From: a virus
Virus record (IMG/VR): IMGVR_UViG_3300037067_022550
DNA length: 64,000 bases
Strand: one strand, 5' to 3'
Shown in pieces: positions 2,751-51,447 of the stretch. The translations under genes and the position numbers were made by a program. Position 1 is the first letter of the stretch; the number at the start of each line of letters is the position of its first letter. Below the pieces are notes generated by a model. The model was given only the letters and a program-made list of their open reading frames with translations. It ran no database searches and was not told the DNA's origin.

Positions 2751-2753
2751 AAA

Positions 2754-3785: not shown

Positions 3786-3848
3786 TTTTCTTCTTGACTT
3801 TATAATTTATATTGCTATCTTTCTTTTAAAGAAACAAAAAAATAAAGG

Positions 3849-4844: not shown

Positions 4845-4856
4845 TTTGTTAGAAAA

Positions 4857-6973: not shown

Positions 6974-7030
6974 AAAAATACGTCATGCAATGGTTGGTCT
7001 GTTAAATAAATATAAAATTAGGAGAAATCA

Positions 7031-7498: not shown

Positions 7499-7546
7499 AT
7501 AGTTCTTGAAATTAATTATCATTTTCTGCTTTGTTTTTCTTTTTGT

Positions 7547-8056: not shown

Positions 8057-8080
8057 TTAAAATTTAATGAAATAAAATAT

Positions 8081-8386
8081 ATGAAAATAAAGGGAATTTG
8101 GGAAACAAGAAAAGTTTGGATTGATGGCGAATATCTTGATCCAATAAATAGTCAGAAAGTATATAATCATTCTCCAGATGGTCATTGTTGGTCTTATTCT
8201 GGATCTGGTCCATCACAATTAGCTTTATCAATTTTGTTGTATCATTTTCCAAAAGAAAAGGCTATTATATGGTATCAGGAATTTAAGAGAGATGTTATAG
8301 CTAACCTTCCTGCTACTGATTTTGAACTTGATATTGATTTGGATGAATGGATAAAAACAAAACAAAATGAGTCAGTGAAAATTTGA
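8081..8386 (+). CDS. hypothetical protein
   Basis: 101-aa ORF. Preferred over the overlapping low-complexity antisense ORF 8064..8252. Confidence 0.35.
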   Translation: MKIKGIWETRKVWIDGEYLDPINSQKVYNHSPDGHCWSYSGSGPSQLALSILLYHFPKEKAIIWYQEFKRDVIANLPATDFELDIDLDEWIKTKQNESVKI

Positions 8387-8389
8387 TCA

Positions 8390-9121: not shown

Positions 9122-9196
9122 AATTAAAATCCTTTTTTAAATTATTCACTAAAAAAAATAAAAATCCTGTTAAATAATATCAAAGGATAGGTAGGA

Positions 9197-11914
9197 CTAT
9201 AATCTCCAATAAACAAAACCGTTTTTAATGCACTCTTCTTTATCATAGAGACCTTTTATATCTATAATAATAGGAGGATGAGAAGACATTTCTTTGAGTT
9301 TGTTTAATGGATATTTTTCTTTAAACATGTTGTGCTTAACAGCCACAATAATAGCTTCATAGGGCTTATTTAAACACAAATCATTATAATTTATAAGTGG
9401 GATATTATATTCTTTATATACTCTATTTATATCTGCTTTGGGATCATAAACAAATGGATTGGTATGATATTTTTTTAATTCTTTGTAAATATCCCCAATT
9501 CTTGAATTTCTTATATCACTTATATTTTCCTTAAAAGTAATGCCCATAATAAGAATATTAGCACCATTAATTTTTTTACCTAATTCTATTAATTTTTTAA
9601 TAGTATTTTCTGCTATATATTTTCCCATATTATCATTTGTTCTTCTACCAGACAAAATTACTTCTGGATGATAGCCCAATATTTCTGCTTTATAAGTAAG
9701 ATAATATGGATCAACGCCGATACAATTGTGAGAAATTATTCCAAAATCCGTAACAATAGTTTTTGTTTTTTCAACTTCTATGGAAAAAACTTCTTGCTCA
9801 TTATTTTCAATAAAAACTTCTTTTACTGGAACTAACCATAATCCATCTGAAAATTCATATTTAATAAGTGGATTTCTTCTGCAATTATTTATATGATTAC
9901 CTATCTTTAAATAATTTTTATCACCCAAAAGTGGAGATATTTTAGATAATATTTTCTGACCACCCAGCAAAGTCAAATGATTTACTTTCGGATTAACTTT
10001 ATTAATATAGGTAGAATAGTGTATTCCATTACTAAGCAATATATAGCAGATTTGGTTAAACATAACTTTACTAGAAGAACTAAAAGTCATTACACAACAA
10101 TTAAAATTATCTCTATTATCTTGCTTTAAACTACCGTCACCTCTAAAAATTCCTGACAAAATAGATAAACATAACTTTTTGTTGTATAAAATGAGAGATG
10201 GAATATTTTTTTCATAACAATTACTTCCACATTTAAAAACTTCTTTAATTAAAAATCCCAATATATTAGAAGAAATTTTAACCTGAATGCAATGGTCTTT
10301 CTTATTATGCCAAATTGAATAAGATATTCCTAATTTTTTAGCAATAGATATTACATCATCAATATATTGCCGTTCGTTTTCATTAAAAGTAAATCTAGTT
10401 CTTATAGAGTTATCTTTTGAAATACATCCCTCTGACAAATAATATCCTATAAATCTGGAAAAATATTCATCAATTTCAATAATATTAGAAATTTTATTAA
10501 AAGACGGGCCTTTGCCTGTAACTAAATAAATATTATCTCTAGAAACTGGCATACTTTTGTTTTTTTCTAGTTCTATAAAAACTTTAAGCGGAAGATAATC
10601 CCATTTAAAATAATTGTCTGGTTTTATTGTTTTTGATTTTTTTAATCCAAATATTTTTTTATAATCTATCCACTTCCCACTTTTTAATTTAACTCTTGTT
10701 TTTGAAATGAGACTATCGGGAATAACATTAATTAAATCAATGTTTGTTGATGTTTGTTCTTGTGGTAAATCCTCATTATAAAATAAGGGTATTTTATCGC
10801 CGACAGCAATATTTTTAGCATGTTTAACTATTAACTTTTCGTTTTCAAAAACAAGTAAGGGATGTTTGTCAGTTACAGATATTTTATGGTTTTTTTCGGT
10901 TGTTACAGTAACTATTTTGTCATAGGTAGCTTTTGAGCATCCAGAAATTTTACTAAATAATAATTTTCGCGAATCAACATCAAAAGAAAGAATTTCATCA
11001 GAATTTTCTTTTTCAAATCCATTGACATATTCTTTAATGGTTTGAGTTTTAATGATATTATTTTTTCTAATAGTAATGAGATGATTTTTAGTAAAGCAAT
11101 GGCCTCCTACAAGCCCAGGTTCATATTTGTGGAAATTCCATTTTGTTCCAGCAGCAGCTAAAACATCTTGGGTGTCTATGTTCATCTTGTGAAAAATCAA
11201 AGCTAATTCATTTACAAGAGCAATGTTTAAATCCCTTTGTACGTTTTCTATAACTTTAGCAGCTTCTGCTGTCCTGATATTTGGAGCCATATGTATTTTT
11301 GCTTCAATTACACTACCATATAAATCATAAATAAACTTTGCTGTTTCTTCATCATCTCCAGAAACTATTTTATTTGTATTTTTAACACAATGAACTTTAT
11401 CGCCAGGATTTATTCTTTCTGGAGAATATCCTACATGAAAATCTTTTTTCCAAACATAGTTTTCTTTAGAAAGTAAGGGGACACATATTTCTTCTGTTAC
11501 GCCAGGATAGACGGTAGATTCATAGATCACCAATATTTTCTTTTTTGTTTCAGAATAATTAAAAGTAGAAATAGTTTTTGTAGCAGATATAATTGGGGTT
11601 AAATCTGGTTGTTTATCTTCATGAATGGGAGTAGGAACAGTAACAATAAAGACATCCATATTTCTTAACATAGCAATGTCTTCTAATGAGATATATTTAA
11701 TGTATGATGCTTGTAATTCTTGTATGGAAACATCTTCATTTCTATCATAATTATTTTTTAATTCTTCAATTCTTTCCTTATAATTATCAAAACCATAAAC
11801 ATTATATTTTTTAGAAAACAAAATTGCTAATGGCAACCCTACATACCCAAGTCCCACGATGCAAATATTTTTTGTTCCAGATCCAATCAAAAAATCAGAA
11901 ATATTATAATTCAT
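9197..11914 (-). CDS. UDP-N-acetyl-D-mannosamine / UDP-sugar 6-dehydrogenase (WecC/TviB-like) interrupted by a 458-aa intein
   Basis: N-terminal Rossmann motif GLGYVGLP. N-extein ends ...LVGGH and C-extein begins CIGVDPYYL, restoring the GGHCIGVDPYY active site. Exteins are 272 + 175 aa. Confidence 0.7.
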   Translation of the reverse strand: MNYNISDFLIGSGTKNICIVGLGYVGLPLAILFSKKYNVYGFDNYKERIEELKNNYDRNEDVSIQELQASYIKYISLEDIAMLRNMDVFIVTVPTPIHEDKQPDLTPIISATKTISTFNYSETKKKILVIYESTVYPGVTEEICVPLLSKENYVWKKDFHVGYSPERINPGDKVHCVKNTNKIVSGDDEETAKFIYDLYGSVIEAKIHMAPNIRTAEAAKVIENVQRDLNIALVNELALIFHKMNIDTQDVLAAAGTKWNFHKYEPGLVGGHCFTKNHLITIRKNNIIKTQTIKEYVNGFEKENSDEILSFDVDSRKLLFSKISGCSKATYDKIVTVTTEKNHKISVTDKHPLLVFENEKLIVKHAKNIAVGDKIPLFYNEDLPQEQTSTNIDLINVIPDSLISKTRVKLKSGKWIDYKKIFGLKKSKTIKPDNYFKWDYLPLKVFIELEKNKSMPVSRDNIYLVTGKGPSFNKISNIIEIDEYFSRFIGYYLSEGCISKDNSIRTRFTFNENERQYIDDVISIAKKLGISYSIWHNKKDHCIQVKISSNILGFLIKEVFKCGSNCYEKNIPSLILYNKKLCLSILSGIFRGDGSLKQDNRDNFNCCVMTFSSSSKVMFNQICYILLSNGIHYSTYINKVNPKVNHLTLLGGQKILSKISPLLGDKNYLKIGNHINNCRRNPLIKYEFSDGLWLVPVKEVFIENNEQEVFSIEVEKTKTIVTDFGIISHNCIGVDPYYLTYKAEILGYHPEVILSGRRTNDNMGKYIAENTIKKLIELGKKINGANILIMGITFKENISDIRNSRIGDIYKELKKYHTNPFVYDPKADINRVYKEYNIPLINYNDLCLNKPYEAIIVAVKHNMFKEKYPLNKLKEMSSHPPIIIDIKGLYDKEECIKNGFVYWRL
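9725..11098 (-). mobile_element. intein with LAGLIDADG homing endonuclease domain, inserted at the catalytic Cys of the dehydrogenase
   Basis: Begins with Cys (CFTKNH), ends HN, followed by the +1 Cys. LAGLIDADG-like blocks FIGYYLSEGCISKD and LSGIFRGDGSLKQ. Boundaries computed from codon positions. Confidence 0.7.
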
Positions 11915-16126: not shown

Positions 16127-16957
16127 CTAATAATTTTTTATTATTATTTCTTCTGATTTTGAATTTCCTGAACGACTTACTTTGTCATAATCACATTCTA
16201 TTTTAACAATATCATACTTCTTTATTCTATCACAATAGGGATTTTTTTTGCCTTTATGTTGCATTACATTAGACATTAAAAACCTTATTCCATTTGAGTT
16301 TAAACCATCAATATAATCATAGAGTTTTAATTCTAAGCTCTTTGACCAATAGCAATTATATCCAGCATCAGTAATCATATAAGGTGGATCTAAATAAACA
16401 AAAGCCCTTTTATTTTCTATATTAATGTTTTCAAAACTATTATTAATAAATACTAAATTGTTGTTGTTGTAAATTCTCTTATGATAATCATAAAGTTTTT
16501 TTTCAATACTTCTATTGAATATTCTATTGCCCCATGTTTGGTTAAAACTTAAACTTTTGTTAAATCTCATCATGTTGTTTGTGCAAGAACAGCAAAGCAA
16601 AAACAAATCAATAGGATTATTTTCCTTATTAAATCTTTCTCTTAATAGTAAATATTCTGTTTGATTTCTATTAATTTGTTTTTTTTGTATTGCGTCTAAT
16701 ACATCAAGCCAAGTGTTTTTCTGCATAAAAATATAAAATTCTATTAAAGGAAGTATAATGTCATTGGCATAAACTTTGTTTGACAAACAGTAATTAATGA
16801 AAAAACTTCCACCACCACAAAACAAATCATATATTTCATCAATATCAGAAGGAATATATTCAGACAATATAGGTATTAACTTATACTTAGAACCAGTGTA
16901 GTTTAGTGGAGAAGCAAGAACTTTTTTATCAACCCTATCAAATAAATTAGTTTCCAT
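16127..16957 (-). CDS. dam: DNA adenine methyltransferase (Dam-like, alpha class)
   Basis: N-terminal NYTGSKYKLIPIL, motif I LFCGGGSF, and motif IV FVYLDPPY near the C-terminus. Confidence 0.7.
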   Translation of the reverse strand: METNLFDRVDKKVLASPLNYTGSKYKLIPILSEYIPSDIDEIYDLFCGGGSFFINYCLSNKVYANDIILPLIEFYIFMQKNTWLDVLDAIQKKQINRNQTEYLLLRERFNKENNPIDLFLLCCSCTNNMMRFNKSLSFNQTWGNRIFNRSIEKKLYDYHKRIYNNNNLVFINNSFENINIENKRAFVYLDPPYMITDAGYNCYWSKSLELKLYDYIDGLNSNGIRFLMSNVMQHKGKKNPYCDRIKKYDIVKIECDYDKVSRSGNSKSEEIIIKNY

Positions 16958-17130
16958 ATGTATTTTATAACTCCTGTTTCAAGAAAGCTCATATGCTTTA
17001 GTCATAGGTATTTTATTTCTTAACCTATATATTATACAGTTTAAATTCAAAAAAGATAATTTAATGAAAGCCAGAAGGGATTATGTTAAGAACTGTTTTA
17101 AGGGCGTTTCAGACTACTTTAAATGCCAAT

Positions 17131-17790
17131 CTATACATCATTAAACAATGTTTTAGGTTCTTCATTTATGTTTTCAAACACATCATATTGTTTGTAACTC
17201 CAAGAAAATAAAGATGTGAAACTAAACCATATTTCCTGATAATTTAAATTATTTTTTGCAAGAATTTTATCTTTAACTGGAACATCAGAATCTTGTTTAT
17301 AGCACCAATCTAATATTATCCAATTATTATCCGTCTCTCTGCAATAAGTTACATAACAGTGACCTTCTTGTTGACCATTGTTGTCTTGTACTAATCCTGC
17401 ATTAACTCTTACTCTCCACCAGGGAACTCCGTTGGAACACAATAAACTTGCCATAAGTAAAGAACCGTCTTCGCAATCACCTCTTTTTAAATATAGTGTT
17501 TCATTAGGAAATTGCCAAAATTCATTATATCCCCAAGAATCTTGATCATACTCGTATTTGCAATTTTTGACAATATACTGTTGACAAACTAAAGCAAAAT
17601 CATCATTTTTTGGAACATATAAGTTTTCTTTTTTTATTAAATCAATAAGAACATAATCGTTTGTCCAAAACATTTTTCTAACATCAATTGGTATCTTGCC
17701 AGCAAAATTAGGTATTTGCCTACCACCATAAATTATTGGTGTTTTGGGATGCTTGTTATTCCAATATTGTTCAAGTTCTTGTTCGTTCAT
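17131..17790 (-). CDS. transglutaminase-like / papain-fold cysteine peptidase domain protein
   Basis: Candidate Cys-His-Asp triad: GDCEDGSLLMASLL, GHCYVTY, ILDW. Immediately downstream of the fibre gene. Confidence 0.4.
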   Translation of the reverse strand: MNEQELEQYWNNKHPKTPIIYGGRQIPNFAGKIPIDVRKMFWTNDYVLIDLIKKENLYVPKNDDFALVCQQYIVKNCKYEYDQDSWGYNEFWQFPNETLYLKRGDCEDGSLLMASLLCSNGVPWWRVRVNAGLVQDNNGQQEGHCYVTYCRETDNNWIILDWCYKQDSDVPVKDKILAKNNLNYQEIWFSFTSLFSWSYKQYDVFENINEEPKTLFNDV

Positions 17791-24557: not shown

Positions 24558-25667
24558 ATGTCACTTCAAACTAGAGCAACAGCATTACAAGGAGAATATG
24601 TTAGGCTTTATTGTAGATTTATTCAGGATGGCATTTTAACAGATCCTTTTGCTGCACCAGAAGTTTATATAACAGATAACGGCTATTATCCGGATTCTGT
24701 TTCTTCATCTGAATCTTCTTCCTATAGCTACTCACTATCAGTTTCATCAGAAAGTTCATCTGAATCTGGAATTTATTATGGACCATTTACTGCACAAAAA
24801 GAACATACAGGACTTTGGTATATAGATTGGTTAGTTCCTGATAGTTTGCCTATTGGTAAATATTTTGATGTATGGAAATTTAAATGGTCAATAGATACAA
24901 GTATTAATAAAACAGAAATATTTGAATTAGTAGTAAATAAAATGGATCAACTTGTTAATTCTGTTAGCCCTGCAGAAACTTTCAATGTTGGGGATAATGT
25001 TTACGGTATGATGAACGATCTATCAAATAATTTCATCTATGAAGCCATGCATATACCTATATATTGGGAACAAGGTTATAAATCTAATGATAAAAAAACA
25101 ATTAACTTTGCCTTTGGTAATTGGAATCACGATCCCAGACCTATAATTAGAGTAAATCAAAAAATTCGTCCAGACGGTTGGCAACCCAATTATAATGGCA
25201 ATATTTATTTTAACCAAAGTTTAGATCCGGAAGATATGGTCTATGCTCAATATAATTTTAAATATTTTAGTAAAGAAGAAATAATGGATTTTCTTAATAT
25301 GGGTTTATATGCCATGAATGCTACACCTCCAGCTAGCCTAACTTATAATAGTATTAATAGTTCTCCTTTTGCTTGGAGATTTGGGATTATTTTATATGCT
25401 GCTATTAAAGCTATTCAAAGATTGGTGTTCGGATTAAATTTCCAAGAAAGAGCTTTAATATTTGCAGAAAAACCAGAAAATGTACAAGCTGCCATTAATA
25501 ACTTTAAGGCACTTTATGCAGATTATAATACTTTGTGGATTGAAGTTAAAAAAGAAGTTAAGACCTTGAAGTTGCCTAGTATCGGACAAATTTCTGTTCC
25601 TGAATATACGTTACCAGGTGGCAGAAGTCGTTGGTTTCGTTATCTTTACAAAAATGGATCTGGTTAA
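24558..25667 (+). CDS. hypothetical protein with Ser-rich low-complexity segment
   Basis: 369 aa. Low-complexity stretch SVSSSESSSYSYSLSVSSESSSESG. Confidence 0.45.
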   Translation: MSLQTRATALQGEYVRLYCRFIQDGILTDPFAAPEVYITDNGYYPDSVSSSESSSYSYSLSVSSESSSESGIYYGPFTAQKEHTGLWYIDWLVPDSLPIGKYFDVWKFKWSIDTSINKTEIFELVVNKMDQLVNSVSPAETFNVGDNVYGMMNDLSNNFIYEAMHIPIYWEQGYKSNDKKTINFAFGNWNHDPRPIIRVNQKIRPDGWQPNYNGNIYFNQSLDPEDMVYAQYNFKYFSKEEIMDFLNMGLYAMNATPPASLTYNSINSSPFAWRFGIILYAAIKAIQRLVFGLNFQERALIFAEKPENVQAAINNFKALYADYNTLWIEVKKEVKTLKLPSIGQISVPEYTLPGGRSRWFRYLYKNGSG

Positions 25668-26794
25668 GATAGTTGATGTTTCTCTTTATATCTTTTTAAT
25701 ATTAATTCTTTGTTTAAATTTAATATTGCATTTTTGTGTTTTAAATACTCTTGTTCATCAAACTTGTATAAAAGTTCTTTTATCGCAAATTTTTTAGTTA
25801 TTTTTAATAATTCTGATGAAGATTTAAAATCAAATATTATCCTAGGTTTTAGTTTTAACGCAGGACATCTAAATCTTACTTCTGCTGTTAATCCAAATTT
25901 TTCATATAATATTGTCTTTAATTTTTTATTTTCTTCTTCGGTAAAAGATTCAGAACACAATTGACATCTTGGAAGAGCATTGTTTAATTTTATTCCGTTT
26001 CTATATCCCCAATCAGTTATCCCATCATCCATAAACCAAATTGCTAAAACAAACTCATTTATATAATCTTCCATATTTTCTGGAACTACCTTTTTTCCGT
26101 TTTTATAAAAAGATTCTTTTAATTCTAAATTTAAACTATGAACTTTACAAACAAGTTGAAAAGTATAAACCCTAGTTCCAGATCTCTTATCATCTCCTAC
26201 GTAATAAGTAAAAGGGTTATTATTCCAAATTTCCTTTAAAAAACTAGCTTTCCACTCTAAATACTCAACTTGTTTTTCAGAATGTTTTTCTCTAAAATTT
26301 CCCCATTTATCTATACAACCATCCCCCAGAAGTGATCCAATAATAACATCCTTGGCTTCTTGAGACAATGGTTTTTCATTAGCAAGTCTTCTTATAAAAG
26401 TAGCTCCTTTTCTCTTAATGCCATAGAAGTCTCTTAAATATGTAATGTGTTCTCTTGGTATATTATATTTTTTTGATATATCATCTAAACTATTTATGGT
26501 TTGGTTATATTCTAATTCAAAAATTTCCTTATTAATAATTGTTGATTGATTTTTTAAAAAGTAATTATAAAAACTAATTAAGTGTTTAGATGTACCTTTT
26601 TTTATTTCTTTTGAAAATCCTCCATTTAATATTTTTTCTTTATATTCTTCAAAAGATATAAATTCTTTTTTTCTATGAGATGGTATTTTTAATCCATGTT
26701 CTTCCTGTTGAATGTGGCATTTATCAATACATTCCACCAATTCTTTTCTTGCCATTTCGTTGCTCACTTTATAAATATTGCTTGTTTTTAACAT
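25664..26794 (-). CDS. free-standing LAGLIDADG homing endonuclease
   Basis: Two LAGLIDADG motifs: IIGSLLGDGCID and LAIWFMDDGITD. Confidence 0.6.
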   Translation of the reverse strand: MLKTSNIYKVSNEMARKELVECIDKCHIQQEEHGLKIPSHRKKEFISFEEYKEKILNGGFSKEIKKGTSKHLISFYNYFLKNQSTIINKEIFELEYNQTINSLDDISKKYNIPREHITYLRDFYGIKRKGATFIRRLANEKPLSQEAKDVIIGSLLGDGCIDKWGNFREKHSEKQVEYLEWKASFLKEIWNNNPFTYYVGDDKRSGTRVYTFQLVCKVHSLNLELKESFYKNGKKVVPENMEDYINEFVLAIWFMDDGITDWGYRNGIKLNNALPRCQLCSESFTEEENKKLKTILYEKFGLTAEVRFRCPALKLKPRIIFDFKSSSELLKITKKFAIKELLYKFDEQEYLKHKNAILNLNKELILKRYKEKHQLS

Positions 26795-26930
26795 TATTTA
26801 TTCTCCTTAATTGTATATCTTATTATATATTACCAGAATTATTATACAACATCCTACAAAAATATACAATTTATTTTACCATATTTTTTATCCAATAGGA
26901 TTCTCCCCTTTAATCCAAGAAACATATTTC

Positions 26931-27815
26931 ATGAACAACATTACAAAAATATTAACACTTATATTTTTATTAATTTCATCAATATTATTTGCAGATTCAT
27001 TTTCTGCTTATATTGAAAATGATGTATATGAAAATAGTGATGGTTTCTATACTCATGGAACACAATTAGAATATACTCATAATATAGATTCAACCAATGT
27101 TTTAGGAATTAAGGGATCACAAGAAATATTTACTCCATCTGACAAAAATAATCCCCTTCCTGAATATGGTGACAGACCTTATGCAGGATGGTTACATGGG
27201 GATGTTTATTTGGAAAGATATTATGATAATCATTGGATAGATCATTATGAATTAAGTCTGGGAGTAGTTGGACCATATTCAGGTGGAGAATTAGCTCAAA
27301 AAACAGTTCATAAATGGTTAGGCAACAAACAACCTCAAGGATGGCAATATCAACTATTAAATGAACCTACTATTCAAATAAATTATGGTAAAATATACTC
27401 TGTTTTTTTAAATGATTATGTTGAATTACGTCCAGAAATGAGATTAAATGCTGGTAATGTTTTAGATGATTTTGAACTTATTCAAACTGTAAGATTTGGT
27501 TATAATATTCCTAAAGATTTTAGTCCTAGAATTTCTATTAAAGGATTATCAAAGAAATATTATTGTTATGGATTTTTAGGAGTAGCTGGGGCTGCAATTG
27601 CTAGGAATTTACTTTTAGATGGGAATACATTTAGGGAAGATGAAGATGTTGTGACTGTAGAACATAGACCAATTGTTTGTGATGGAATAATGGGTATATG
27701 CTTTGGAATAAATTTTATAGAAATAACTGTTACCCATATTGAACAAACAGATGAATTTTATGGTCAGAAGAGAGATGAAAGATATGACAGCTTAAAGGTA
27801 AGGTACATTTGGTAA
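26931..27815 (+). CDS. outer-membrane protein, LpxR/DUF2219-like (putative lipid A deacylase family)
   Basis: Signal peptide MNNITKILTLIFLLISSILFA. Mature N-terminus has YIENDV, and GDRPYAGWLHGD recalls a conserved LpxR-family motif. Start moved from 26811 to the internal ATG at 26931. Confidence 0.35.
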   Translation: MNNITKILTLIFLLISSILFADSFSAYIENDVYENSDGFYTHGTQLEYTHNIDSTNVLGIKGSQEIFTPSDKNNPLPEYGDRPYAGWLHGDVYLERYYDNHWIDHYELSLGVVGPYSGGELAQKTVHKWLGNKQPQGWQYQLLNEPTIQINYGKIYSVFLNDYVELRPEMRLNAGNVLDDFELIQTVRFGYNIPKDFSPRISIKGLSKKYYCYGFLGVAGAAIARNLLLDGNTFREDEDVVTVEHRPIVCDGIMGICFGINFIEITVTHIEQTDEFYGQKRDERYDSLKVRYIW

Positions 27816-29629: not shown

Positions 29630-30577
29630 TTATTTACCAATAATTTTTTGTTTTAAATTTCTAACAAAATCTTCTTTATTTTCATATCTGTCTATCATTG
29701 TTTTAAGAACATCTTCTGGAACTCCATGAACATTTCTGCCTTTTAGAAAATCGAAATTCCATTTTCCGGTAGAATCTTTTAAATCTTTATGCCAATGAGG
29801 TTCTTCTATTCTTATTTTATAACCGTGACCGATAGCCATTCTAACGTAAGGTTCTGCTTCTATAGCTTGTGTATTAGTATTGGCTATAATTATGGGAGTT
29901 ATACCATTTTCCATTGCTTCAAGACATCTTTCTTGATTCCAATTATGGGCTTCTATTTGTTTTTCTTTATCAAAAACATATTTATCTTGTTGCATAAAAA
30001 ATTCATCTGATTCTAAAACAATACCTGTATTTCCAGCTAATTGTTTGGCTAATGTACTTTTTCCGCCGCCAGGAGGGCATCTCACCAATATCATTAGTTT
30101 TTCTTGTTGGGATATTTTGTGCCAATTGCAACTATGGCTTAAGTTTAATTCTGGTTGATATTTAATTTCTTCTTTTCTTTTCTTTTTTTGTTCAATTAAA
30201 TAATTACACATTCCAATAACTCTTCTTAATGTTTCTTTATCAAACAAAGCCATATGACATAAATTTCTTGGAACATTAAGTTTTCTGGCCAACCAATTAT
30301 AATATTTTTGTTGAGCTTCTTTAGGATTGGATTCGTTTTCTATCATTTCTTTTATTTTATTATGAGCTGCTTTCCTCAATGCTATTGTTTCTAAATCTCC
30401 AGGAACTCCTTGTGGCTTACCATCTTTGAATGCTCCATGAGTAACTTTACAATCTGGATAATTTTGACAACGATAGTAAAATCTGTCATTCCATTTATGA
30501 AGTTTAAGTTTTGAGCCGCATTCAGGGCAATCTAAATCGTGTTCCTTTACTTCTTGTGCAATTTTATACCAGTTCAT
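29630..30577 (-). CDS. MNWYK-leader protein with topoisomerase-type Zn ribbon plus P-loop kinase domain (polynucleotide-kinase-like)
   Basis: Starts MNWYKIAQ. Zn ribbon CPECGSKLKL...CQNYPDCK. Walker A CPPGGGKST. C-terminal HGVPEDVLKTMIDRY resembles PNK-family kinases. Confidence 0.55.
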   Translation of the reverse strand: MNWYKIAQEVKEHDLDCPECGSKLKLHKWNDRFYYRCQNYPDCKVTHGAFKDGKPQGVPGDLETIALRKAAHNKIKEMIENESNPKEAQQKYYNWLARKLNVPRNLCHMALFDKETLRRVIGMCNYLIEQKKKRKEEIKYQPELNLSHSCNWHKISQQEKLMILVRCPPGGGKSTLAKQLAGNTGIVLESDEFFMQQDKYVFDKEKQIEAHNWNQERCLEAMENGITPIIIANTNTQAIEAEPYVRMAIGHGYKIRIEEPHWHKDLKDSTGKWNFDFLKGRNVHGVPEDVLKTMIDRYENKEDFVRNLKQKIIGK

Positions 30578-32959: not shown

Positions 32960-34132
32960 TTATTTGTCAATATTATCAATACCAGTATTGTTTTCACAAG
33001 AAGATGGTGGTATTTTAACTGAATATATTGAAGTTGTTGTTCCCCAACCACCAGGAACTGCATACATAAAAACACCGTCTTTATTTTTTTTAGGATATTC
33101 ATATTCAGGATAAACAACTCCATATACCATAACTTCATTAAAAACTCCATATAGAATTCTTTGGCCAACCATTTCTTTCGTTTTAAATTGTTTTTTAGTG
33201 GATTTATTTTCATTAATTTCAACATATTTATTTTTACAATGGTCTTTACAACATTTAAAAGATTCAAATCTGTATTTATTTAATCTATTTTGCCATATAT
33301 ATTTTAATGGATTTTCTTTATAATCTTTATATCCCTTATCAGATCCGTAATCACAATCTGTTTCATCTAAAATATTACCAACGACAACATCATTAATATT
33401 TACCCAAGACCTCATGCTTAAACAAGGAACTACATATCCATTATGAAGTATTCCAATTGAACACATTCCAGCACTACATTTTCCACAATTAGCGTTATCT
33501 GCTATTACTATTTTAATTCCGTTACTAATAGAATTTGAAATTTTTTCAGAAAAGAAATTTAAAGCTTTTGAATTGTTATAAATAGCCGATACATTATCTT
33601 CTTCTTTATACATTGTATATTGAATTTGCCAAGTTAAATTATTTTCTTTAACAAAACCTTCTATTTCGTCATACATAAAAATATTTTGCAAATTAAAATT
33701 ACTAATAATTGTTGACTTTTTTAATAAATCTTTATTAAAAGAAGTTATTAATAATTTTAATTCTTTTTCTGTGTTAACAGACAATCCAATCCAATCATAT
33801 AGCTCTAAAATATTATCAATAATTAAATTTGTATAAGATTTTGAATTTACAATACTCTTTGGATTTATAATGATTTTACATTTAACTTCTTTATCTTTCA
33901 ATATTTCTGTAACAATTTTGTGAGTTTCATAATTAACCAGAAGAGGATCTCCACCAGACATATCTATTTCTTCTGGACTAAATTTTGCAATATTTTTTGC
34001 AATTTGGATTATTTTTTCTGAGTCTACGGGGTAATTCCAAGATTCTTTAGAACCGCAATATTCACATCCGTTATTACATTTACCTGTCATTTCCCAAATA
34101 ATTTCTTTAAGTTTTAAATGACTATTTTGCAT
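32960..34132 (-). CDS. radical SAM enzyme with SPASM-like Cys-rich domain
   Basis: GKCNNGCEYCGS (CX3CX2C) and GGDPLL. Later CGKCSAGMCSIGILHNGYVVPC cluster. Confidence 0.6.
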   Translation of the reverse strand: MQNSHLKLKEIIWEMTGKCNNGCEYCGSKESWNYPVDSEKIIQIAKNIAKFSPEEIDMSGGDPLLVNYETHKIVTEILKDKEVKCKIIINPKSIVNSKSYTNLIIDNILELYDWIGLSVNTEKELKLLITSFNKDLLKKSTIISNFNLQNIFMYDEIEGFVKENNLTWQIQYTMYKEEDNVSAIYNNSKALNFFSEKISNSISNGIKIVIADNANCGKCSAGMCSIGILHNGYVVPCLSMRSWVNINDVVVGNILDETDCDYGSDKGYKDYKENPLKYIWQNRLNKYRFESFKCCKDHCKNKYVEINENKSTKKQFKTKEMVGQRILYGVFNEVMVYGVVYPEYEYPKKNKDGVFMYAVPGGWGTTTSIYSVKIPPSSCENNTGIDNIDK

Positions 34133-44416: not shown

Positions 44417-44641
44417 TTATATTGAAATGGTTTTTCCTTTTGATGGCTGACTAGAAACAATATTAATAATATGTTCCCTAATTTTAGCGTCTAAATGAAA
44501 ATAAACATTTGGATCAACTCTAGTAAAAATATGACTTCTGTTTTTTTTAGCATATTCCAAAATATATCTTCTACACATTGATTTTTTTATCATCGTTTTC
44601 ATTATTTTATCATTCTCATAAATTCTTCTTCTGATATGCAT
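44417..44641 (-). CDS. hypothetical small protein (uncertain)
   Basis: 74-aa ORF overlapping the ligA 3' end. May start at an internal Met. Confidence 0.2.
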   Translation of the reverse strand: MHIRRRIYENDKIMKTMIKKSMCRRYILEYAKKNRSHIFTRVDPNVYFHLDAKIREHIINIVSSQPSKGKTISI

Positions 44642-46584
44642 GTGACTCCAAGGGCAGAAGCCTTATCCATCTTAGAACCGCACTTTTCTCCACAAATAAG
44701 ATAGTTTAATTTGCTTGAAACTGAAGAAGAAAAATTTCCCCCATTTTCTTCAATCATTTCTTGAAATTTGCTTCTTGAACTACTTAATGTTCCAGTAATG
44801 CAAAAGCTTTTACCATTTAGTTTTTTTGACATTGTTTCTTTATCCTTTTTTATTGTTATGTAACTATTCAATAATCTATCTATTTGATCCCTTTGCTTTT
44901 TCCATCCATTGATAAAAGAATTAGCTTTCTTTTCTTTAAATCCATGAATTTTAACTATATCTTCTACTTTTAATTTGTCAATATCTTTAATTGTAGGAGC
45001 TATGGCTGTAATATCTTTACTCATTCTGCCTATCTTGCCTATTCCCAAAGCTTCTATAAAATCTGCTAATGAAAGCTCCTTAACAGAATTAACAGCTTGA
45101 ACAATATTGGCAAAGGCTTTCTTGCCAAAAATCTCATTATACACTGCTGGGCCGTCGGGCTGATATATGTTAGACAGATTGCACAATAAATACATATCTG
45201 CAACATTCCTGAGTGGTATGTAGCCTTCTTTTTCTTCTCCAGATGTTAATTTTTCAATAATTCCTGGACCAATACCAAGAACTCCTATTTTTTTAAACCA
45301 ATGTTCTATGCATCTGTCAACCTGTGCTGGGCAAGCGTCATTATAGCAATGTTTTGTGGTTTCTGTATCATCCCATTCCAATTCTCCTTCACAAGCAGGG
45401 CAAGTATCTGGTATTTCTATTTTTTTCCCCTTGCCCTGTTCTACTACTTCAATTATTTTGGGAATAATATCTCCTGCTTTCTCCAGTACAATTTTGGTGC
45501 CCAAATTGGTAATGCCAAGTCGCGTCATTTCCTTTAAGTTATGGATAGTTGATCTTTGAACTGTTGTACCAGCAATATGAACTGGTTTTAACAATGCTAC
45601 AGGGGTCAAAGAACCTGTGCGACCAATGCTCCATTCTACGCCTTCCAAGATTGTCTCTTTTTTTTCTGTTGGGAATTTTATTGCCCTATTAGCTTTGAGT
45701 CTTTTACCTTCATCTGTTGTACCCATTGACTCTACTAATTCCAGATCATTAATTTTAACAACAATCCCATCAACATCAAAAGGCAAGTCTTCCCTCTTTA
45801 CTTGGTTCATAAATTTATTAATTTCTTTTATGACATCTTCTACTTTCTTGCCTTTACAAACAATCAAACTAGTTTCGTCCCTCAAGGTTTTAAACCCATT
45901 ATATTCAAGAAACTTTGATTTTTCAACTTCTTGTTTAAAGTCTACACCACGAACATCATAGGCTATAAACTCCAATCCTCTGCGTTTTGTTTCTTGTGGA
46001 TCTTTCTGGTTAATAGCTCCTGCAGTAAAATTTCTAGGATTGGCTGGATTCCTTCCGTTGATAAGTTGATTTGCCCAATTTTTATAAAAATCTTGTCTAT
46101 TTTTGAAAACTTCACCCTTAATTTCTACATATCCTTGGCTACTAATTTTTTCTTGAACGTTTTTAATAAAGCGAGCGTTACTTGTATAGTCCAACCCTTC
46201 TACTCCATCTCCACGAGAAACCCCCTGAATAAACTTACCGTCTTGATATTTAAGACAAAAAGAACTTCCGTCAACTTTTAATTCAACAACAAGAATAAGT
46301 TTGTCTAACTTATCACCGAATGTTTTCTCAAACCATTTTGCAAACTCATCTGTGTTTGGATCTTTGTTAAGAGATCCCATAATATATTTGTGTTTAACCC
46401 TAGTACCATAGACAGATTCTTCTATTCCACCAACTTCACTAAAAAAATCATTTGTGGGGTCAAGTTCTTTTAGAGCAGAATATTCCTTGTCATATTCATC
46501 ATCTGTAATAGGAGAAGTTCCATTGGTTTCATACAGTTTGGCACATTTTTTGAGATAATCTATCCTATCTTGAACTGATTTCAT
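44602..46584 (-). CDS. ligA: NAD-dependent DNA ligase
   Basis: Adenylation KxDG motif (ELKVDGSSF). Zn finger CPACEGELEW...C..ACP. C-terminal HhH and BRCT region. 660 aa. Confidence 0.85.
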   Translation of the reverse strand: MKSVQDRIDYLKKCAKLYETNGTSPITDDEYDKEYSALKELDPTNDFFSEVGGIEESVYGTRVKHKYIMGSLNKDPNTDEFAKWFEKTFGDKLDKLILVVELKVDGSSFCLKYQDGKFIQGVSRGDGVEGLDYTSNARFIKNVQEKISSQGYVEIKGEVFKNRQDFYKNWANQLINGRNPANPRNFTAGAINQKDPQETKRRGLEFIAYDVRGVDFKQEVEKSKFLEYNGFKTLRDETSLIVCKGKKVEDVIKEINKFMNQVKREDLPFDVDGIVVKINDLELVESMGTTDEGKRLKANRAIKFPTEKKETILEGVEWSIGRTGSLTPVALLKPVHIAGTTVQRSTIHNLKEMTRLGITNLGTKIVLEKAGDIIPKIIEVVEQGKGKKIEIPDTCPACEGELEWDDTETTKHCYNDACPAQVDRCIEHWFKKIGVLGIGPGIIEKLTSGEEKEGYIPLRNVADMYLLCNLSNIYQPDGPAVYNEIFGKKAFANIVQAVNSVKELSLADFIEALGIGKIGRMSKDITAIAPTIKDIDKLKVEDIVKIHGFKEKKANSFINGWKKQRDQIDRLLNSYITIKKDKETMSKKLNGKSFCITGTLSSSRSKFQEMIEENGGNFSSSVSSKLNYLICGEKCGSKMDKASALGVTCISEEEFMRMIK

Positions 46585-46630
46585 GGTTTTGTTCCTAAAT
46601 GGTTTATGACTTATTCTTTAAAATAATGTA

Positions 46631-47029
46631 TCAGATGTTAGTTGTTTTGTCAATACTATTTTGAAGAATATTGGCGTTTAATAATTCCAACCATTTGTTT
46701 TTTAGTTTAACGGAAATTTCGCGAGTGCCGACAGGTATTGCAATGTCAGAAGAAATAACTTTTGAACTATCCCAGTTTAAGCCAACTTTCACTGACTTCT
46801 CTGACACTTTCCTGCGAAAATCAGATTTACTAGATGAAATTCCCAACTCCAGCATTATCCATGATATATTAACTGGAAATGGGCACACTAAAATAACCAT
46901 GTCGTCTTCGCTTATATCTGCAATAATTGTGTTATCAAAAATCTTATCTCTGTTTTCAATTTCGCTAATCTGTTCGCAAATAAAACCAGACTTTATTTGG
47001 GGATGCCCACTTAATGAAAACTTATTCAT
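46631..47029 (-). CDS. hypothetical protein (possible S4-like RNA-binding C-terminus)
   Basis: FRRKVSEKSVKVGLNWDSSKV weakly resembles S4-type motifs. Confidence 0.3.
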   Translation of the reverse strand: MNKFSLSGHPQIKSGFICEQISEIENRDKIFDNTIIADISEDDMVILVCPFPVNISWIMLELGISSSKSDFRRKVSEKSVKVGLNWDSSKVISSDIAIPVGTREISVKLKNKWLELLNANILQNSIDKTTNI

Positions 47030-47160
47030 ATTTTGACTACATTCTTTAAAGGTTTCCTTACTTATTCTTTAAATACAATGTAGCAGACATTAATAGATTT
47101 GTCAAGTATTAACTTCTATTCTACCACTTTATGCAATTATTTAAATCACAATTATTAGCT

Positions 47161-47412
47161 CTATTTTTTTGTAAATGGATAAAACAAGACTGGTTGATGT
47201 CTTGTTTCTCTATTAGCATTATACATAATGGATTCCTTATGTTCTGATCGCGTGAATAAAACAAAATGTCCATTGTCGTCTTCCACCCAAACCACAGCAG
47301 ATGGACCAATTTCTTTTTGATAAATATTCCAATAATCAAACGCTGCTTTGATGAGTTTTTTTGCAGCTTTTCCAAGGTCGCTTTTCAAATTTATTGATTT
47401 ATTTGTTTGCAT
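47161..47412 (-). CDS. hypothetical small protein
   Basis: 83-aa ORF only. Confidence 0.3.
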   Translation of the reverse strand: MQTNKSINLKSDLGKAAKKLIKAAFDYWNIYQKEIGPSAVVWVEDDNGHFVLFTRSEHKESIMYNANRETRHQPVLFYPFTKK

Positions 47413-47714
47413 TTTTTATCTTTTTTTGAAGGGATTTGCCAATCCATGTGACCAAAGCTACAAAATATCATTCCATTAATCGCATTACAACCACCGTCTG
47501 GATAAATACAATTGGTTAAAAAATTTTTATATTTAACTTCTTCATCCACAAATTGTGGGACTTCAATAATTCTGCGTCTATTGGCAAGATTAAGTTGATA
47601 GTCTACGTGATAACCATTTTTTTCAAAAGATTTAATAGTTTTAAAATCAGAATAAAACTGTTTGTGGCTTGCTTTTGGTCTTTCTCCGTGTTCCCATATT
47701 TCCATGTCTGTCAT
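47391..47714 (-). CDS. hypothetical protein
   Basis: 107-aa ORF only. Confidence 0.3.
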   Translation of the reverse strand: MTDMEIWEHGERPKASHKQFYSDFKTIKSFEKNGYHVDYQLNLANRRRIIEVPQFVDEEVKYKNFLTNCIYPDGGCNAINGMIFCSFGHMDWQIPSKKDKKCKQINQ

Positions 47715-47794
47715 GTTGTTTTACTCCTGCTGCTATTTTAATGGCTATCAGTTCTTTGGTTGAACATGCCCAACAATTTTAGTGATTTTGTAAT

Positions 47795-48610
47795 TTATTT
47801 TCCCAACAACATTTCCTTGGTTATTTCTTTAGGAATCTTTTGGGCAAATTTATTCTTTATTTCAATAAACTTTTCAAACCCAGGATTACCTTCTTTAATC
47901 CAATTTTCAAAAGAAAGATACTCTTTAGGAACATCTTTAAGTTGATCAAATTCTTTATATAAATAATATTCTGATATTTTATGCAATCTTTTATCATAAC
48001 TTGGAATGAAAGGAATTATAAGTTCAACACTAAATGGAACATAATAAGACATATCTCTTGTTAATTCTGCAGTAAAACCGTTCATGCTTGGAACATAATT
48101 AAAATCTTTCAATATTTTATCCCAAATTTTTCCTCTTTTCTCCCAATCTTTATAATTAATTCCATCAAGAGGGTCTGTATTGTTCCAATAACCGAATTTT
48201 TTTATCCATTCTTGTTGAAACCACATTTCATTAATTTTTCTATTATCACAAAATAGCATTCCGTAAAATGTATCTTTATACAAATGAACTGTGGCAGAAC
48301 AGGAATAATCAAAAAGGCTCCTTTCTGGAGAAATTTTTACTTTTTTAGTTTCTTGCAGTAAATATTCGTATGCATAAAAAAAGGGGGATGTATTTTTTTC
48401 ATTATTTTCTATACCACAGCAACAATTGTCTATAAAATTTGATGCAATAGCGGCAGAAAATTTATTGAATTCACTAGTAATATATTTATCAATTTTATGT
48501 CTAAATTCCTGATTTTTTTTATTTATAACTGCTATGTTTTTAGGAACAAACATAAAACCATCATATATTTTTGTACTCATATTTTCACATTTAGTGCAAT
48601 GGTTGATCAA
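47795..48610 (-). CDS. hypothetical protein
   Basis: 271-aa ORF, Cys-rich N-terminus, no motif recognised. Confidence 0.4.
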   Translation of the reverse strand: MINHCTKCENMSTKIYDGFMFVPKNIAVINKKNQEFRHKIDKYITSEFNKFSAAIASNFIDNCCCGIENNEKNTSPFFYAYEYLLQETKKVKISPERSLFDYSCSATVHLYKDTFYGMLFCDNRKINEMWFQQEWIKKFGYWNNTDPLDGINYKDWEKRGKIWDKILKDFNYVPSMNGFTAELTRDMSYYVPFSVELIIPFIPSYDKRLHKISEYYLYKEFDQLKDVPKEYLSFENWIKEGNPGFEKFIEIKNKFAQKIPKEITKEMLLGK

Positions 48611-48649
48611 CTTGTTTATTTTTTAAAAAAAAATATTTCTAATTATCAA

Positions 48650-49024
48650 TTAATTACTTTTTAGTTTATTTAAATCTTCTTCTGCATTTTTTATTTGTTC
48701 CTCTAGTCGTTTCATTTCTTCCTGTTTGCGAATAATTTTATAAGCAATTTCTTTCTTTTCTCTACTTTTTTTAGCTTTTTCAACTCTTTTGCTTTCATCA
48801 ATAAATTCAGTAGCAGAAACTGTCAATTTTACAATTAACGGAATCCCATAATCTGGGTAATTATTGGCCCACCAAGTAACCATAGATCTGGCTCCACCAA
48901 TTTTGGGGTAAATACGTGCCTTATTTATGTTATCAACCCAGCATGTTCCACTACCACCGTATCCCTTTCTCCTAAGCCATTTTCCATCTTTACTTTGAAC
49001 AACATATAATTCTAAATTTTGCAT
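48650..49024 (-). CDS. hypothetical protein with coiled-coil C-terminus
   Basis: 124-aa ORF with C-terminal K/E-rich helix. Confidence 0.35.
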   Translation of the reverse strand: MQNLELYVVQSKDGKWLRRKGYGGSGTCWVDNINKARIYPKIGGARSMVTWWANNYPDYGIPLIVKLTVSATEFIDESKRVEKAKKSREKKEIAYKIIRKQEEMKRLEEQIKNAEEDLNKLKSN

Positions 49025-49106
49025 CAGATTTTTACCATAGTTATCTTGAAAAAATAATCTTTATTTCAGTAAACAAATAACAATCAAAAATATTGGCAAT
49101 TATTTT

Positions 49107-49388
49107 TTATTCATTAATAGATTCAGGAAAATCACATCCTATTTCTTTTAACTTTGACTTTTTCACAAGAAATATCTTTTTTAGTCTCCTATCTTCCTTA
49201 CTAGTAAAAACATTATATTCTTTTTCATCATAAGCAATTCCAGCTGCAGAAAACATTCCATTGTTAATTAAAATAACAGGAATAAGATCTTTTGGAATAT
49301 TTCCCCAATCTGCCTCCGGAACTTCAAGTCCTTCTCTATACAAAAAAGTTTCTTTTTCTTCATTTGGTGGATTTACATAAAAGCCCAT
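49107..49388 (-). CDS. hypothetical small protein
   Basis: 93-aa ORF. Weak N-terminal similarity to the next gene (MGFYVN vs MGYTYG). Confidence 0.3.
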   Translation of the reverse strand: MGFYVNPPNEEKETFLYREGLEVPEADWGNIPKDLIPVILINNGMFSAAGIAYDEKEYNVFTSKEDRRLKKIFLVKKSKLKEIGCDFPESINE

Positions 49389-49400
49389 TTGTTTTTCTCC

Positions 49401-49634
49401 TTATATTATTTGAAGTCTAATCGGTTTTTTTATTAATTCAACCTGATCTTCTCGTAAAACTATACCAAAACATCCAATTCCAGTTTCTTTCATAAATGTT
49501 CCATCTTTACTTTTAGTAAGAATATCATCCGTAAAAAGTTCTATATTTCTGTCCTTTTCAGATAGGCATGGCCAAGGATATTCTCCGTCTTTTTTGACCT
49601 TATAATATTCATTAAGTCCATATGTGTATCCCAT
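49401..49634 (-). CDS. hypothetical small protein
   Basis: Start placed at the MGYTYG internal Met to reduce overlap with the upstream gene. Confidence 0.3.
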   Translation of the reverse strand: MGYTYGLNEYYKVKKDGEYPWPCLSEKDRNIELFTDDILTKSKDGTFMKETGIGCFGIVLREDQVELIKKPIRLQII

Positions 49635-49644
49635 TTGTTTCTCC

Positions 49645-50076
49645 TTATTTTTGTTCTTTATTGCGTGTTGCTTCAAGTATGGGCAAATTAGCTTCTGTTG
49701 GAATATAAACTACTGTTTTTTGTTGCCCAGCTCCAGCTACATCAGTAATCCAAAGATAACGAAGATAAGCTTCATTGTTGTGTAAACTTTCTCCAATAAT
49801 TTTGTTTGCTTTGGCTACTCCTTCTGCTCTCAATACTTCTGCTTTAGCCAAAAGCTCAGAACTTTCCATCTTAGCTTTGGCTTCTGCCACAGCAACTTCC
49901 TTGGCAGATTGAGCATGAGCCAATTGAGCTTGACCCTCAAGGCGTTTTTGGTACACATTCCAACGAGGACAACCCCACATTCCTAAACACGTTATTATTA
50001 GAATAAATATTCCAACATGAATTAATATGGGTGCAACTTTCGGAGTTTCGTTTCTTTCATTCCAATAAATACTCAT
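49645..50076 (-). CDS. SPFH/band-7-like membrane protein (short)
   Basis: N-terminal TM. Ala/Glu-rich helix RLEGQAQLAHAQSAKEVAVAEAKAKMESSELLAKAEVLRAEGVAKA typical of SPFH/YqiK C-terminal regions. Confidence 0.45.
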   Translation of the reverse strand: MSIYWNERNETPKVAPILIHVGIFILIITCLGMWGCPRWNVYQKRLEGQAQLAHAQSAKEVAVAEAKAKMESSELLAKAEVLRAEGVAKANKIIGESLHNNEAYLRYLWITDVAGAGQQKTVVYIPTEANLPILEATRNKEQK

Positions 50077-50095
50077 TTGTTTCTCCTTATTATGT

Positions 50096-51268
50096 TTATT
50101 TTTTTATGATTTCAAGATATAACTGATTAATTGCCTTGTGGTTTACAGTATGAGGAATTTTTGTTGTTTCTTTCAACCTTTTCAATCCTTCCATTTCTTC
50201 TTCAACTATCTTTATTAATGTTTGATAGTCGTATTTTCCTCTCCTAATATCCATCAAGAATTCTCTTTGCTTTCCTTCAAATCTAACAATTGGCTCAGAT
50301 TTTGTCAATATATTTTTTCCAGAATAAAGAAGTCTCATGCAATGCATCATATTTTTACAGTCATAATCAACTACACCTTTTTCTTGAATAATCCATCTTG
50401 CTTCATTTCTATTTTTAACCCAATCCCAATAGTTTTTCCATACTTTGTGAGCTTTTTCAAATTCAGCTTCGCTATATTGTAAAAGACCGACAAATCTATC
50501 TCTTTCGTCGTCAAGCGGAATAGATTCGCAAACCAACATTTGGTCTCCTCTAAAAACCCCCTTGGAAGAATCTCCATAATAATAAAGTCTATAGGTGTTA
50601 GGAATATGTTCCAAAGCAGCAACATGAAATTTAGATAAGTCATATACTTTTGAAAGACGGCAATATTCTATTGGTCTGCATGGAGTGTTCATTATAAATT
50701 TAATCATGTCTAAATCATATATTGTTTCTATATTAGACATATCAGATCTGAACCCGCACTTTCTTGGAGAATAATTTTCCCAAAGAGGCAAAGGAATAAT
50801 GCGACAAAAATCTTCTTTCTTTGGTGGATCTTTTGGACAAGGGTTATTAACTAGTTTATTTTGACCACGACACTTTTCCCACTGAGCATAAGCATATCCG
50901 CTGTGCGTAAAGTAAGCCTTTTGAGAAATAAAAAGATTTCTGTTAGCAATTATCATTTCCATTTCCGGAGTGCATTTCTTAATACATTCTTTTGGTAAAA
51001 ATGCCATTTCTAGAATATTTGGATTCCCATCTTGTATTAGTTTAAAAAACTTTCTAAGTTCATAATATTTAACATCTTGCTTATCATCTGCAACTTCCTC
51101 GGGAGGATCAAACAAAGACATATGCATTTCATTTGGAACCTTAAATACACCCCTAATATCCGTATCAGAAGAATATTCTGGAGTATCAATGGCCAAATTA
51201 TATGCCCTTGATCCTGAAATTGCTTCAAACATAATGTATTTTTGTTCTTTAATGTCTTTAATATTCAC
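50096..51268 (-). CDS. predicted nucleotidyltransferase (pol-beta superfamily, PF10127-like)
   Basis: ISGSRAYNLAIDTPEYSSDTDIRGVF gives the GS...DxD NTase motif. Confidence 0.5.
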   Translation of the reverse strand: MNIKDIKEQKYIMFEAISGSRAYNLAIDTPEYSSDTDIRGVFKVPNEMHMSLFDPPEEVADDKQDVKYYELRKFFKLIQDGNPNILEMAFLPKECIKKCTPEMEMIIANRNLFISQKAYFTHSGYAYAQWEKCRGQNKLVNNPCPKDPPKKEDFCRIIPLPLWENYSPRKCGFRSDMSNIETIYDLDMIKFIMNTPCRPIEYCRLSKVYDLSKFHVAALEHIPNTYRLYYYGDSSKGVFRGDQMLVCESIPLDDERDRFVGLLQYSEAEFEKAHKVWKNYWDWVKNRNEARWIIQEKGVVDYDCKNMMHCMRLLYSGKNILTKSEPIVRFEGKQREFLMDIRRGKYDYQTLIKIVEEEMEGLKRLKETTKIPHTVNHKAINQLYLEIIKK

Positions 51269-51447
51269 AGTTTTTCTCCTATTTGTTAAAAGACTACCAT
51301 ATTATAAAATAATGTCAATAATTTTATTATTATATAGAATATACACATTTTTACAATATTTAATTATAAAAAAATAAAAGAAGAAAGGATATTTAAAAAA
51401 AACTATGAATGATAAAATAGTTAATAAAAAACTAAAAGGAGAAAAAC

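Follow-up and report, generated by a model that had tools for sequence, protein, structure and literature searches.

An RlaP-family nucleotidyltransferase beside a short SPFH-tail-like membrane protein in an accessory gene run of a putative large, low-GC phage

Two RlaP proteins (PF10127) from Pseudomonas have been shown to add one or two nucleoside monophosphates at RNA 3'-OH ends; these nucleotidyltransferases (NTases) favour mimics of nicked or damaged tRNA, prefer Mn2+, take dATP as a donor and do not extend DNA (December 2025 preprint, PMC12776372). For a tRNA without one anticodon-loop nucleotide, pre-treatment with RlaP followed by ligation recovers part of the aminoacylation; PfRlaP is built from an NTase core plus a helical domain and has three strictly conserved Asp residues, and NrdC.11 of phage T4 is named as a member of the family (PMC12776372). 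In jumbo phages, moreover, comparative genomics has noted that the occurrence of RlaP follows that of RNA ligases (PMC7824862). In the Hailong system, an NTase (HalB) is paired with a membrane ion channel (HalA) (PMC13434031). Here, we consider a gene run in the IMG/VR virus record IMGVR_UViG_3300037067_022550, of which a stretch of 64,000 nucleotides (hereafter, the window) was analysed. The run is headed by a gene for a 390-residue NTase (positions 50096-51268, minus strand; GTG start, with an AGGAG ribosome-binding site), and this is followed by a gene for a 143-residue membrane protein, termed mini-SPFH (49645-50076, minus strand). On sequence grounds, the NTase clearly belongs to the RlaP/PF10127 family, and we regard it as probable that the region is an early or accessory gene run of a large phage, and not a single system, in which an RlaP acting in RNA-end repair would stand next to an independent membrane gene.

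The NTase matches the Pfam RlaP profile with a score of 76.6 bits (cut-off 23; E 3.2e-21) and PHROG 388, labelled 'nucleotidyltransferase', at 9.7e-48 across residues 6-386. There are 626 homologues in a large protein database at E<=1e-5, and among the matches listed, PF10127 is carried by 120 out of 120. BLASTP aligns the protein with T4 NrdC.11 at 32% identity over 128 residues (E 3e-7). The initial annotation of the region had described a Gly-Ser pair followed, after 14 residues, by a DTD triplet, exactly as we find it (G19-S20 and D35-T36-D37). Among 22 aligned close homologues, G19, S20, D35, D37 and E87 are invariant, and D65 is nearly so; across 20 diverse phage RlaPs (21-56% identity, T4 NrdC.11 included), the invariant set comprises G19, S20, D35, D37, D65, D303, K305, H309 and R312, and E87 falls outside it. 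The invariance of D65 in the broader alignment therefore identifies it as the third catalytic carboxylate, giving three conserved Asp residues as in PfRlaP; the GS and DxD motifs and the third acidic residue are thus all intact. The link to RNA repair that the initial annotation had mentioned for PF10127-type NTases is borne out at the level of family membership, through the Pfam match, the homologues, NrdC.11, and the GS motif plus three Asp residues.

The AlphaFold2 (AF2) model of the NTase (pLDDT 87.8) predicts a core at approximately residues 1-135, an α/β insert at approximately 136-265 and a C-terminal helical domain at 267-389, the last of these containing the invariant D303, K305, H309 and R312. 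As is characteristic of RlaP members, the N-terminal NTase domain is predicted to be fused to the helical domain such that the two form a cleft. The protein, therefore, resembles RlaP and T4 NrdC.11 in its Pfam score well above threshold, in its GS motif and three invariant Asp residues, in the order of NTase and helical domains and in being phage-encoded; it differs from NrdC.11 in that the identity of ~32% is confined to the N-terminal 128 residues, and from RlaP and NrdC.11 in its lineage-variable interdomain insert of ~130 residues, for which there is no Pfam match. This insert is partly disordered in the model and varies across the family, and Pfam searches with the isolated insert and the isolated C-terminal domain returned nothing. 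A Foldseek search of the PDB with the model gave no significant neighbour. PDB sequence searches with the NTase and two RlaP profiles likewise gave no meaningful match (the PDB copy used apparently lacks PfRlaP), the profiles bringing up only CdvA, at 0.016, in a search to E<=1 and an epimerase, at E 2, in one to E<=10. None of the ten proteins scanned, the NTase among them, matches a PADLOC model at E<=0.01, so the NTase is not a CD-NTase; an NCBIfam scan of the same ten proteins found nothing relevant, and neither did an exact-peptide search of IMG/VR with the NTase alone return anything.

The second gene was initially annotated as encoding a short SPFH/band-7 membrane protein, and of this description the transmembrane segment stands, whereas the band-7 domain does not. 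Mini-SPFH has one N-terminal hydrophobic segment (residues 14-34; Kyte-Doolittle 19-mer mean 2.5), which coincides with a helix at residues 14-35 in the AF2 model; it is followed by a long helix (37-99), a further helix (102-115) and an unstructured, conserved tail. Approximately 105 residues follow the transmembrane helix, nearly all within the two helices, and the conserved C-terminal element reads KTVVYIPTEANLPILEA. Band_7 (PF01145) is not matched at E<=0.1, nor at E<=10. Instead, similarity is confined to the prohibitin coiled coil in the PDB (E 0.005 with the single sequence; E 1.9e-4 with a profile), to the C-terminal part of the PHROG 200 profile (E 3.3e-6) and, weakly, to residues 240-293 of Escherichia coli HflC by hhalign (E 0.014, probability 3%); HflK was not matched (E 0.22). 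The PDB searches return only prohibitins, ATP synthase b and pilins, of which the pilin matches to the N-terminus (E 0.015-0.03) were judged to be due to chance or composition, and Foldseek found nothing significant in the PDB for the model. Mini-SPFH shares with SPFH proteins (prohibitin, HflK/HflC, QmcA and stomatin) an N-terminal membrane anchor and, possibly, the C-terminal coiled-coil region, in that its long Ala/Glu-rich helix aligns with the coiled-coil wall (prohibitin ~170-226; HflC 240-293) and it has a conserved tail of the type '...AYLRYL...KTVVYIPTE..LPIL'; it differs in being entirely devoid of the SPFH/band-7 domain, and the similarity is remote, the protein belonging to a short-protein family of its own. 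SPFH proteins are associated with NfeD-type operon partners. Mini-SPFH has no such partner: unbiased clustering of all of the open reading frames (ORFs) surrounding it revealed no recurrent neighbour in 76 dereplicated loci (from a sample of 80 IMG/VR loci, 1.29 Mb).

Sequence searches place mini-SPFH in a very large, highly conserved phage family of ~140-residue proteins. In a 90%-identity database, 7263 clusters are matched at E<=1e-5, and 120 homologues among the matches listed are 59-83% identical and 121-184 residues long, nearly all of them 130-155; a hidden Markov model scan found 1157 clusters at 50% identity, of which the best 150 are all short, and more than 529 matches are present in IMG/VR. 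Identity stands at 65-80% across phages with very different hosts, and the soluble part is far better conserved than the transmembrane segment. The match to PHROG 11227 (1.6e-47) carries the label 'protease', which appears to derive from annotations as 'membrane protease subunit/HflC'. In two unrelated phages, the gene lies beside nicotinamide adenine dinucleotide (NAD) salvage genes (Klebsiella phage MJ359, L005, 1077-4336, and Ralstonia phage RSP15, L006, 138-4333; locus handles are ours), these being genes for nicotinamide mononucleotide adenylyltransferase and PnuC in one, and for nicotinamide phosphoribosyltransferase (NAMPT) and a cytidyltransferase in the other. At a further locus (L010, 5117-6438), it directly follows the gene for the anti-Pycsar protein Apyc1.

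The evidence argues against a link between mini-SPFH and the neighbouring NTase. Mini-SPFH is present in none of 80 viral RlaP loci from IMG/VR (1.13 Mb, from an alignment-based scan; 48 dereplicated groups), and RlaP is found in only 2 of the 80 mini-SPFH loci (L165 and L141), where it lies upstream of mini-SPFH at a distance of 1.1-1.8 kb, with two or four intervening genes, and is never adjacent. The closest relatives of the locus (L001-L003, with NTases 53-61% identical) have no mini-SPFH homologue, and in six other contexts (three annotated phages and three further contigs), mini-SPFH occurs without RlaP, in surroundings that include a primase, NAD salvage genes, Apyc1 and a Verrucomicrobiota prophage-like region. 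Moreover, mini-SPFH is bracketed by the copies of a 31-nt direct repeat, 442 nt apart, of which 18 nt are exact: the left copy (50074-50104) comprises a ribosome-binding site plus start codon, and the right copy (49632-49662) overlaps the mini-SPFH stop codon together with the ribosome-binding site and start of the next gene, o77. In L001, the closest relative, only 12 nt separate the NTase stop codon from the o77 homologue, such that the junction lacks the cassette. Both the direct repeats and the cassette-free junction match insertion at a gene boundary, and we take mini-SPFH to be a stand-alone gene, mobile in its own right, that entered as a cassette of 442 nt between the NTase gene and the one after it. 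The GC content of mini-SPFH is 38%, as against 29% for the window, owing to its Ala/Gly-rich composition; at third codon positions it is 22%, the same as in the neighbouring genes, so the insertion is not recent, and a recent foreign origin on the basis of GC content was rejected.

By homology with the Pseudomonas enzymes, the NTase would most likely extend broken RNA, above all tRNA, at its 3'-OH by one or two nucleotides in a template-independent manner, and transcripts or tRNAs that host anticodon nucleases or ribotoxins have trimmed could thereby be resealed or reused in infection. We infer this substrate, and the role in vivo in the window's phage, from family membership and from associations in other phages: an RNA or tRNA repair gene lies within 10 kb of RlaP in 11 of the 80 loci (a CCA-adding enzyme in five, a PseT-like kinase-phosphatase in three and an Rnl1-like ligase in three), and the gene for the CCA-adding enzyme immediately precedes RlaP in L068, L072 and L141. 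A number of observations weigh against a role in RNA repair beside an independent membrane gene. No gene resembling those for Rnl1, PseT or the CCA enzyme was found by tblastn across the 64-kb window, and Pfam scans of the larger ORFs there (covering most of those with ~190 residues or more) revealed neither RtcB nor an RNA ligase; the sole candidate for an RNA-end-healing partner, as judged from its domains, is a Zn-ribbon (DUF3268)/AAA_33 kinase 20 kb away (29630-30577, minus strand), which also matches PHROG 505 'polynucleotide kinase', albeit less strongly. The RlaPs that have been assayed are distant, cellular ones only, and the phage-type proteins carry the variable insert of ~130 residues between their domains. 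The neighbours that recur beside phage RlaPs are, across the 48 groups, RecA/UvsX (20), the gp32 single-stranded DNA-binding protein (18), a helicase (16) and the clamp loader (12), along with a fragment of Pol III alpha; and, unlike the pairing of RlaP with RNA ligase, the window has no RNA ligase nearby, the conserved neighbour being the NAD-dependent DNA ligase (LigA), which lies downstream of RlaP in the window, L001, L002, L013 and L017. Finally, the 19- and 10-nt gaps that flank mini-SPFH and the shared ribosome-binding sites imply that the NTase and mini-SPFH are probably co-transcribed, and a lineage-specific functional link is possible. The replication genes and LigA also favour an alternative in which phage-type RlaP works in DNA metabolism, tailing or priming DNA ends for the NAD-dependent ligase or for replication and recombination, as do the facts that HalB, the nearest solved structure, makes DNA and that a Pseudomonas RlaP accepts dATP. 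We consider this unlikely: the characterized RlaPs leave DNA unextended (PMC12776372), several phage RlaPs sit directly beside a CCA-adding enzyme, a polynucleotide kinase or RNA ligase 1, and the replication-gene neighbours may only mirror synteny conserved in a single large phage clade, by which the sample of loci is dominated.

The adjacency of the two genes had led the initial annotation to propose CBASS-like logic, and the corresponding explanation is a two-gene nucleotide-signalling or guard system, akin to CBASS or Hailong, in which the product of the NTase controls a membrane-disrupting effector. The 19-nt gap and probable co-transcription are compatible with this, as is the transmembrane helix; the Pol-β fold, the GS and DxD motifs and the membrane protein gene that comes next are shared with CBASS CD-NTases, and Hailong is likewise a pair of NTase and membrane ion channel. 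Nevertheless, we judge such a system to be very improbable, and the linkage data largely refute it, as the pair is not conserved (0/80; 2/80, non-adjacent; absent in the closest relatives), mini-SPFH, which lies in a repeat-bracketed insertion, has no conserved partner at all, and the context is a phage genome and not a defence island. In contrast to CBASS, the NTase lacks both a PADLOC model match and a conserved effector pairing, with CdnD and cGAS appearing only as insignificant Foldseek matches (E 2.5-3.7). With Hailong, no sequence-level relationship was seen, as the RlaP profiles match neither HalB nor any PDB sequence convincingly, and Foldseek gives nothing significant; HalB has 217 residues against the 390 of the NTase. 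Mini-SPFH, for its part, is a single-pass coiled-coil protein and not a homologue of the tetrameric channel; prohibitin coiled coils are matched, but neither HalA nor any effector sequence is. The NTase itself falls firmly within RlaP, and the membrane protein retains its transmembrane segment. Mini-SPFH might alternatively take part in lysis, as a type II membrane protein that, in the manner of an i-spanin, has a coiled-coil ectodomain. Rz-type i-spanins are of similar size and have an N-terminal transmembrane helix and a long helical C-terminal part, features that mini-SPFH shares. Yet we think this scarcely credible, given that no o-spanin lipoprotein, holin or endolysin recurs beside mini-SPFH in the 76 loci, that its contexts are early or accessory (primase, NAD salvage and Apyc1), that its level of identity across phages of very different hosts is unlike that of the fast-evolving spanins and that, by sequence, it is the C-terminal region of SPFH proteins that it resembles. 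Rather than serving as an effector of the NTase, mini-SPFH most likely acts alone at the host membrane, and our favoured guess would be a membrane scaffold that either self-assembles or engages host SPFH proteins. A more specific proposal, to which we attach only a small, albeit real, chance, is that such 'headless' SPFH phage proteins, which keep only a transmembrane anchor together with the coiled coil and C-terminal segment resembling the oligomerising wall of SPFH cages, co-assemble with, cap or mimic the SPFH cages of the host (HflK/C-FtsH); if true, they would reprogramme membrane proteolysis or microdomains in infection and represent a new class of phage takeover factor.

Homing endonuclease genes adjoin several RlaP genes. 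A gene of the NUMOD3 plus TnsA-like type is located immediately upstream of RlaP in L001 (6440-7429), L002 (7026-7910) and L003 (7124-8029), and in T4 (L173), the homing endonuclease gene mobD (16430-17209) precedes nrdC.11, a point of likeness between T4 and the relatives of the window; no homing endonuclease gene lies beside RlaP in the window itself. As the endonuclease adjoins RlaP in both L001-L003 and T4, the data suggest that homing repeatedly targets the RlaP gene. Additionally, the jumbo-phage contig L141 (440 kb, IMG/VR) encodes on one strand (1558-10351) a radical-SAM protein, a homologue of o261 (see below), ClpP, a CCA-adding enzyme, RlaP, a DUF1848 protein and mini-SPFH, a gene set that forms a distant echo of the gene content of the window.

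As the initial annotation had it, the NTase heads a co-directional minus-strand run, and the ORF list contains all eight of its ORFs at the positions given there. Downstream of mini-SPFH come o77 (49401-49634; MGYTYG..., 77 residues counted from the ATG, a start also chosen by gene callers) and o93 (49107-49388; MGFYVN..., 93 residues), and, after this small pair, the four further ORFs that had been reported, extending down to 47161: o124 (48650-49024; 124 residues), o261 (47795-48580; 261 residues, or 271 with TTG at 48610 as the start), o107 (47391-47714; 107 residues) and o83 (47161-47412; 83 residues, with a 22-nt overlap with o107). The same run continues just past the initially annotated region with o132 (46631-47029) and the gene for the 660-residue LigA (44602-46584), all on the minus strand. 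Upstream of the NTase lies an AT-rich, divergent intergenic region (51269-51447, 180 nt) with sigma-70-like hexamers (e.g. TTGTAA-16-TATAAT at 51356-51329, minus strand), which is the probable start of the run. The first four genes are spaced by 19, 10 and 12 nt, and near-identical AGGAGAAA ribosome-binding sites precede them, whereas the later intergenic gaps in the run are 69-131 nt; no terminator-like sites were found within the run. The short gaps, the shared ribosome-binding sites and the lack of a terminator make it probable that the first four genes are transcribed as one unit. A scan of the 64 kb for an extended -10 pattern (TTGACA-N14-TGnTAnnnT; 0.05 expected by chance) gave three occurrences, all on the minus strand and in or just past the run: within the NTase gene, in its 3' portion (50280-50308), before o132 (47077-47105; TTGACA-N14-TGcTACATT) and immediately upstream of ligA (46625-46653). 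The latter two sites have ~45 nt in common, including TTTAAAGAATAAGT. On account of these three promoter-like sites, the run down to the ligase probably has further internal promoters; the operon of the initial annotation, then, probably holds for the first four genes, but not as a single unit to the end of the run.

The six remaining ORFs encode lineage-specific proteins, and the small proteins have no Pfam, PHROG, NCBIfam or PADLOC assignment. The possible paralogy of the MGYTYG and MGFYVN proteins, raised initially, was rejected, as BLASTP gives no alignment of o77 with o93 at E<=100. Both are lineage-specific ORFans: the o77 homologue in L001 (56% identity) comes straight after RlaP, and o93 is kept downstream of RlaP in L001 (74%) and L002 (59%). 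The o124 protein has a charged, coiled-coil C-terminus, and its matches are limited to the same phage in other samples. For o261, the family comprises 29 unannotated database proteins, and homologues lie near RlaP in L002 (50%) and, more distantly, in L141 (30%). The remaining three, o107, o83 and o132, are ORFans, and o107 matches no family.

Judged by its sequence, the window looks like part of a large, low-GC phage: proteins identical to those of the window are found on contigs of up to 264 kb, and its other genes encode a topoisomerase, Dam, a Nudix protein, a DUF932 protein, a sliding clamp and a sigma-like protein. No match to the region turned up when 50,697 phage records were searched by megablast, and no tRNA genes or Rfam families were found in the window. 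Elsewhere in the window, a UDP-glucose/GDP-mannose dehydrogenase gene (9197-11914, minus strand) is broken by an intein with a LAGLIDADG endonuclease (Pfam Intein_splicing plus LAGLIDADG_3), and there is a free-standing LAGLIDADG_2 gene at 25664-26794. Immediately beyond the latter, a gene (26811-27815, plus strand) encodes a protein homologous to LpxR, an outer-membrane lipid A 3'-O-deacylase (E 6e-66); this implies that the host is Gram-negative and that its lipid A may be remodelled. Radical-SAM proteins are encoded at 3849-4844 (plus strand) and 32960-34132 (minus strand), and an R2K-clade ATP-grasp protein at 4857-5657 (plus strand); pantothenate/flavoprotein (Dfp-like) genes (1384-2750) lie near the radical-SAM and ATP-grasp genes, an unusual metabolic cluster for a phage.

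Overall, the region is an ordinary phage accessory region, in which the NTase adds a new member to a known enzyme family, and it illustrates that an NTase next to a membrane protein is, by itself, insufficient to call a signalling system. A large family of membrane-anchored, SPFH-tail-like phage proteins, which databases currently mislabel as 'protease', is hereby flagged. The NTase, in turn, joins a family whose biochemistry has only recently been described, from a divergent phage lineage in which RlaP is found with DNA ligase and replication genes, and not with RNA ligase; this lineage bears on what phage RlaPs, T4 NrdC.11 included, do.

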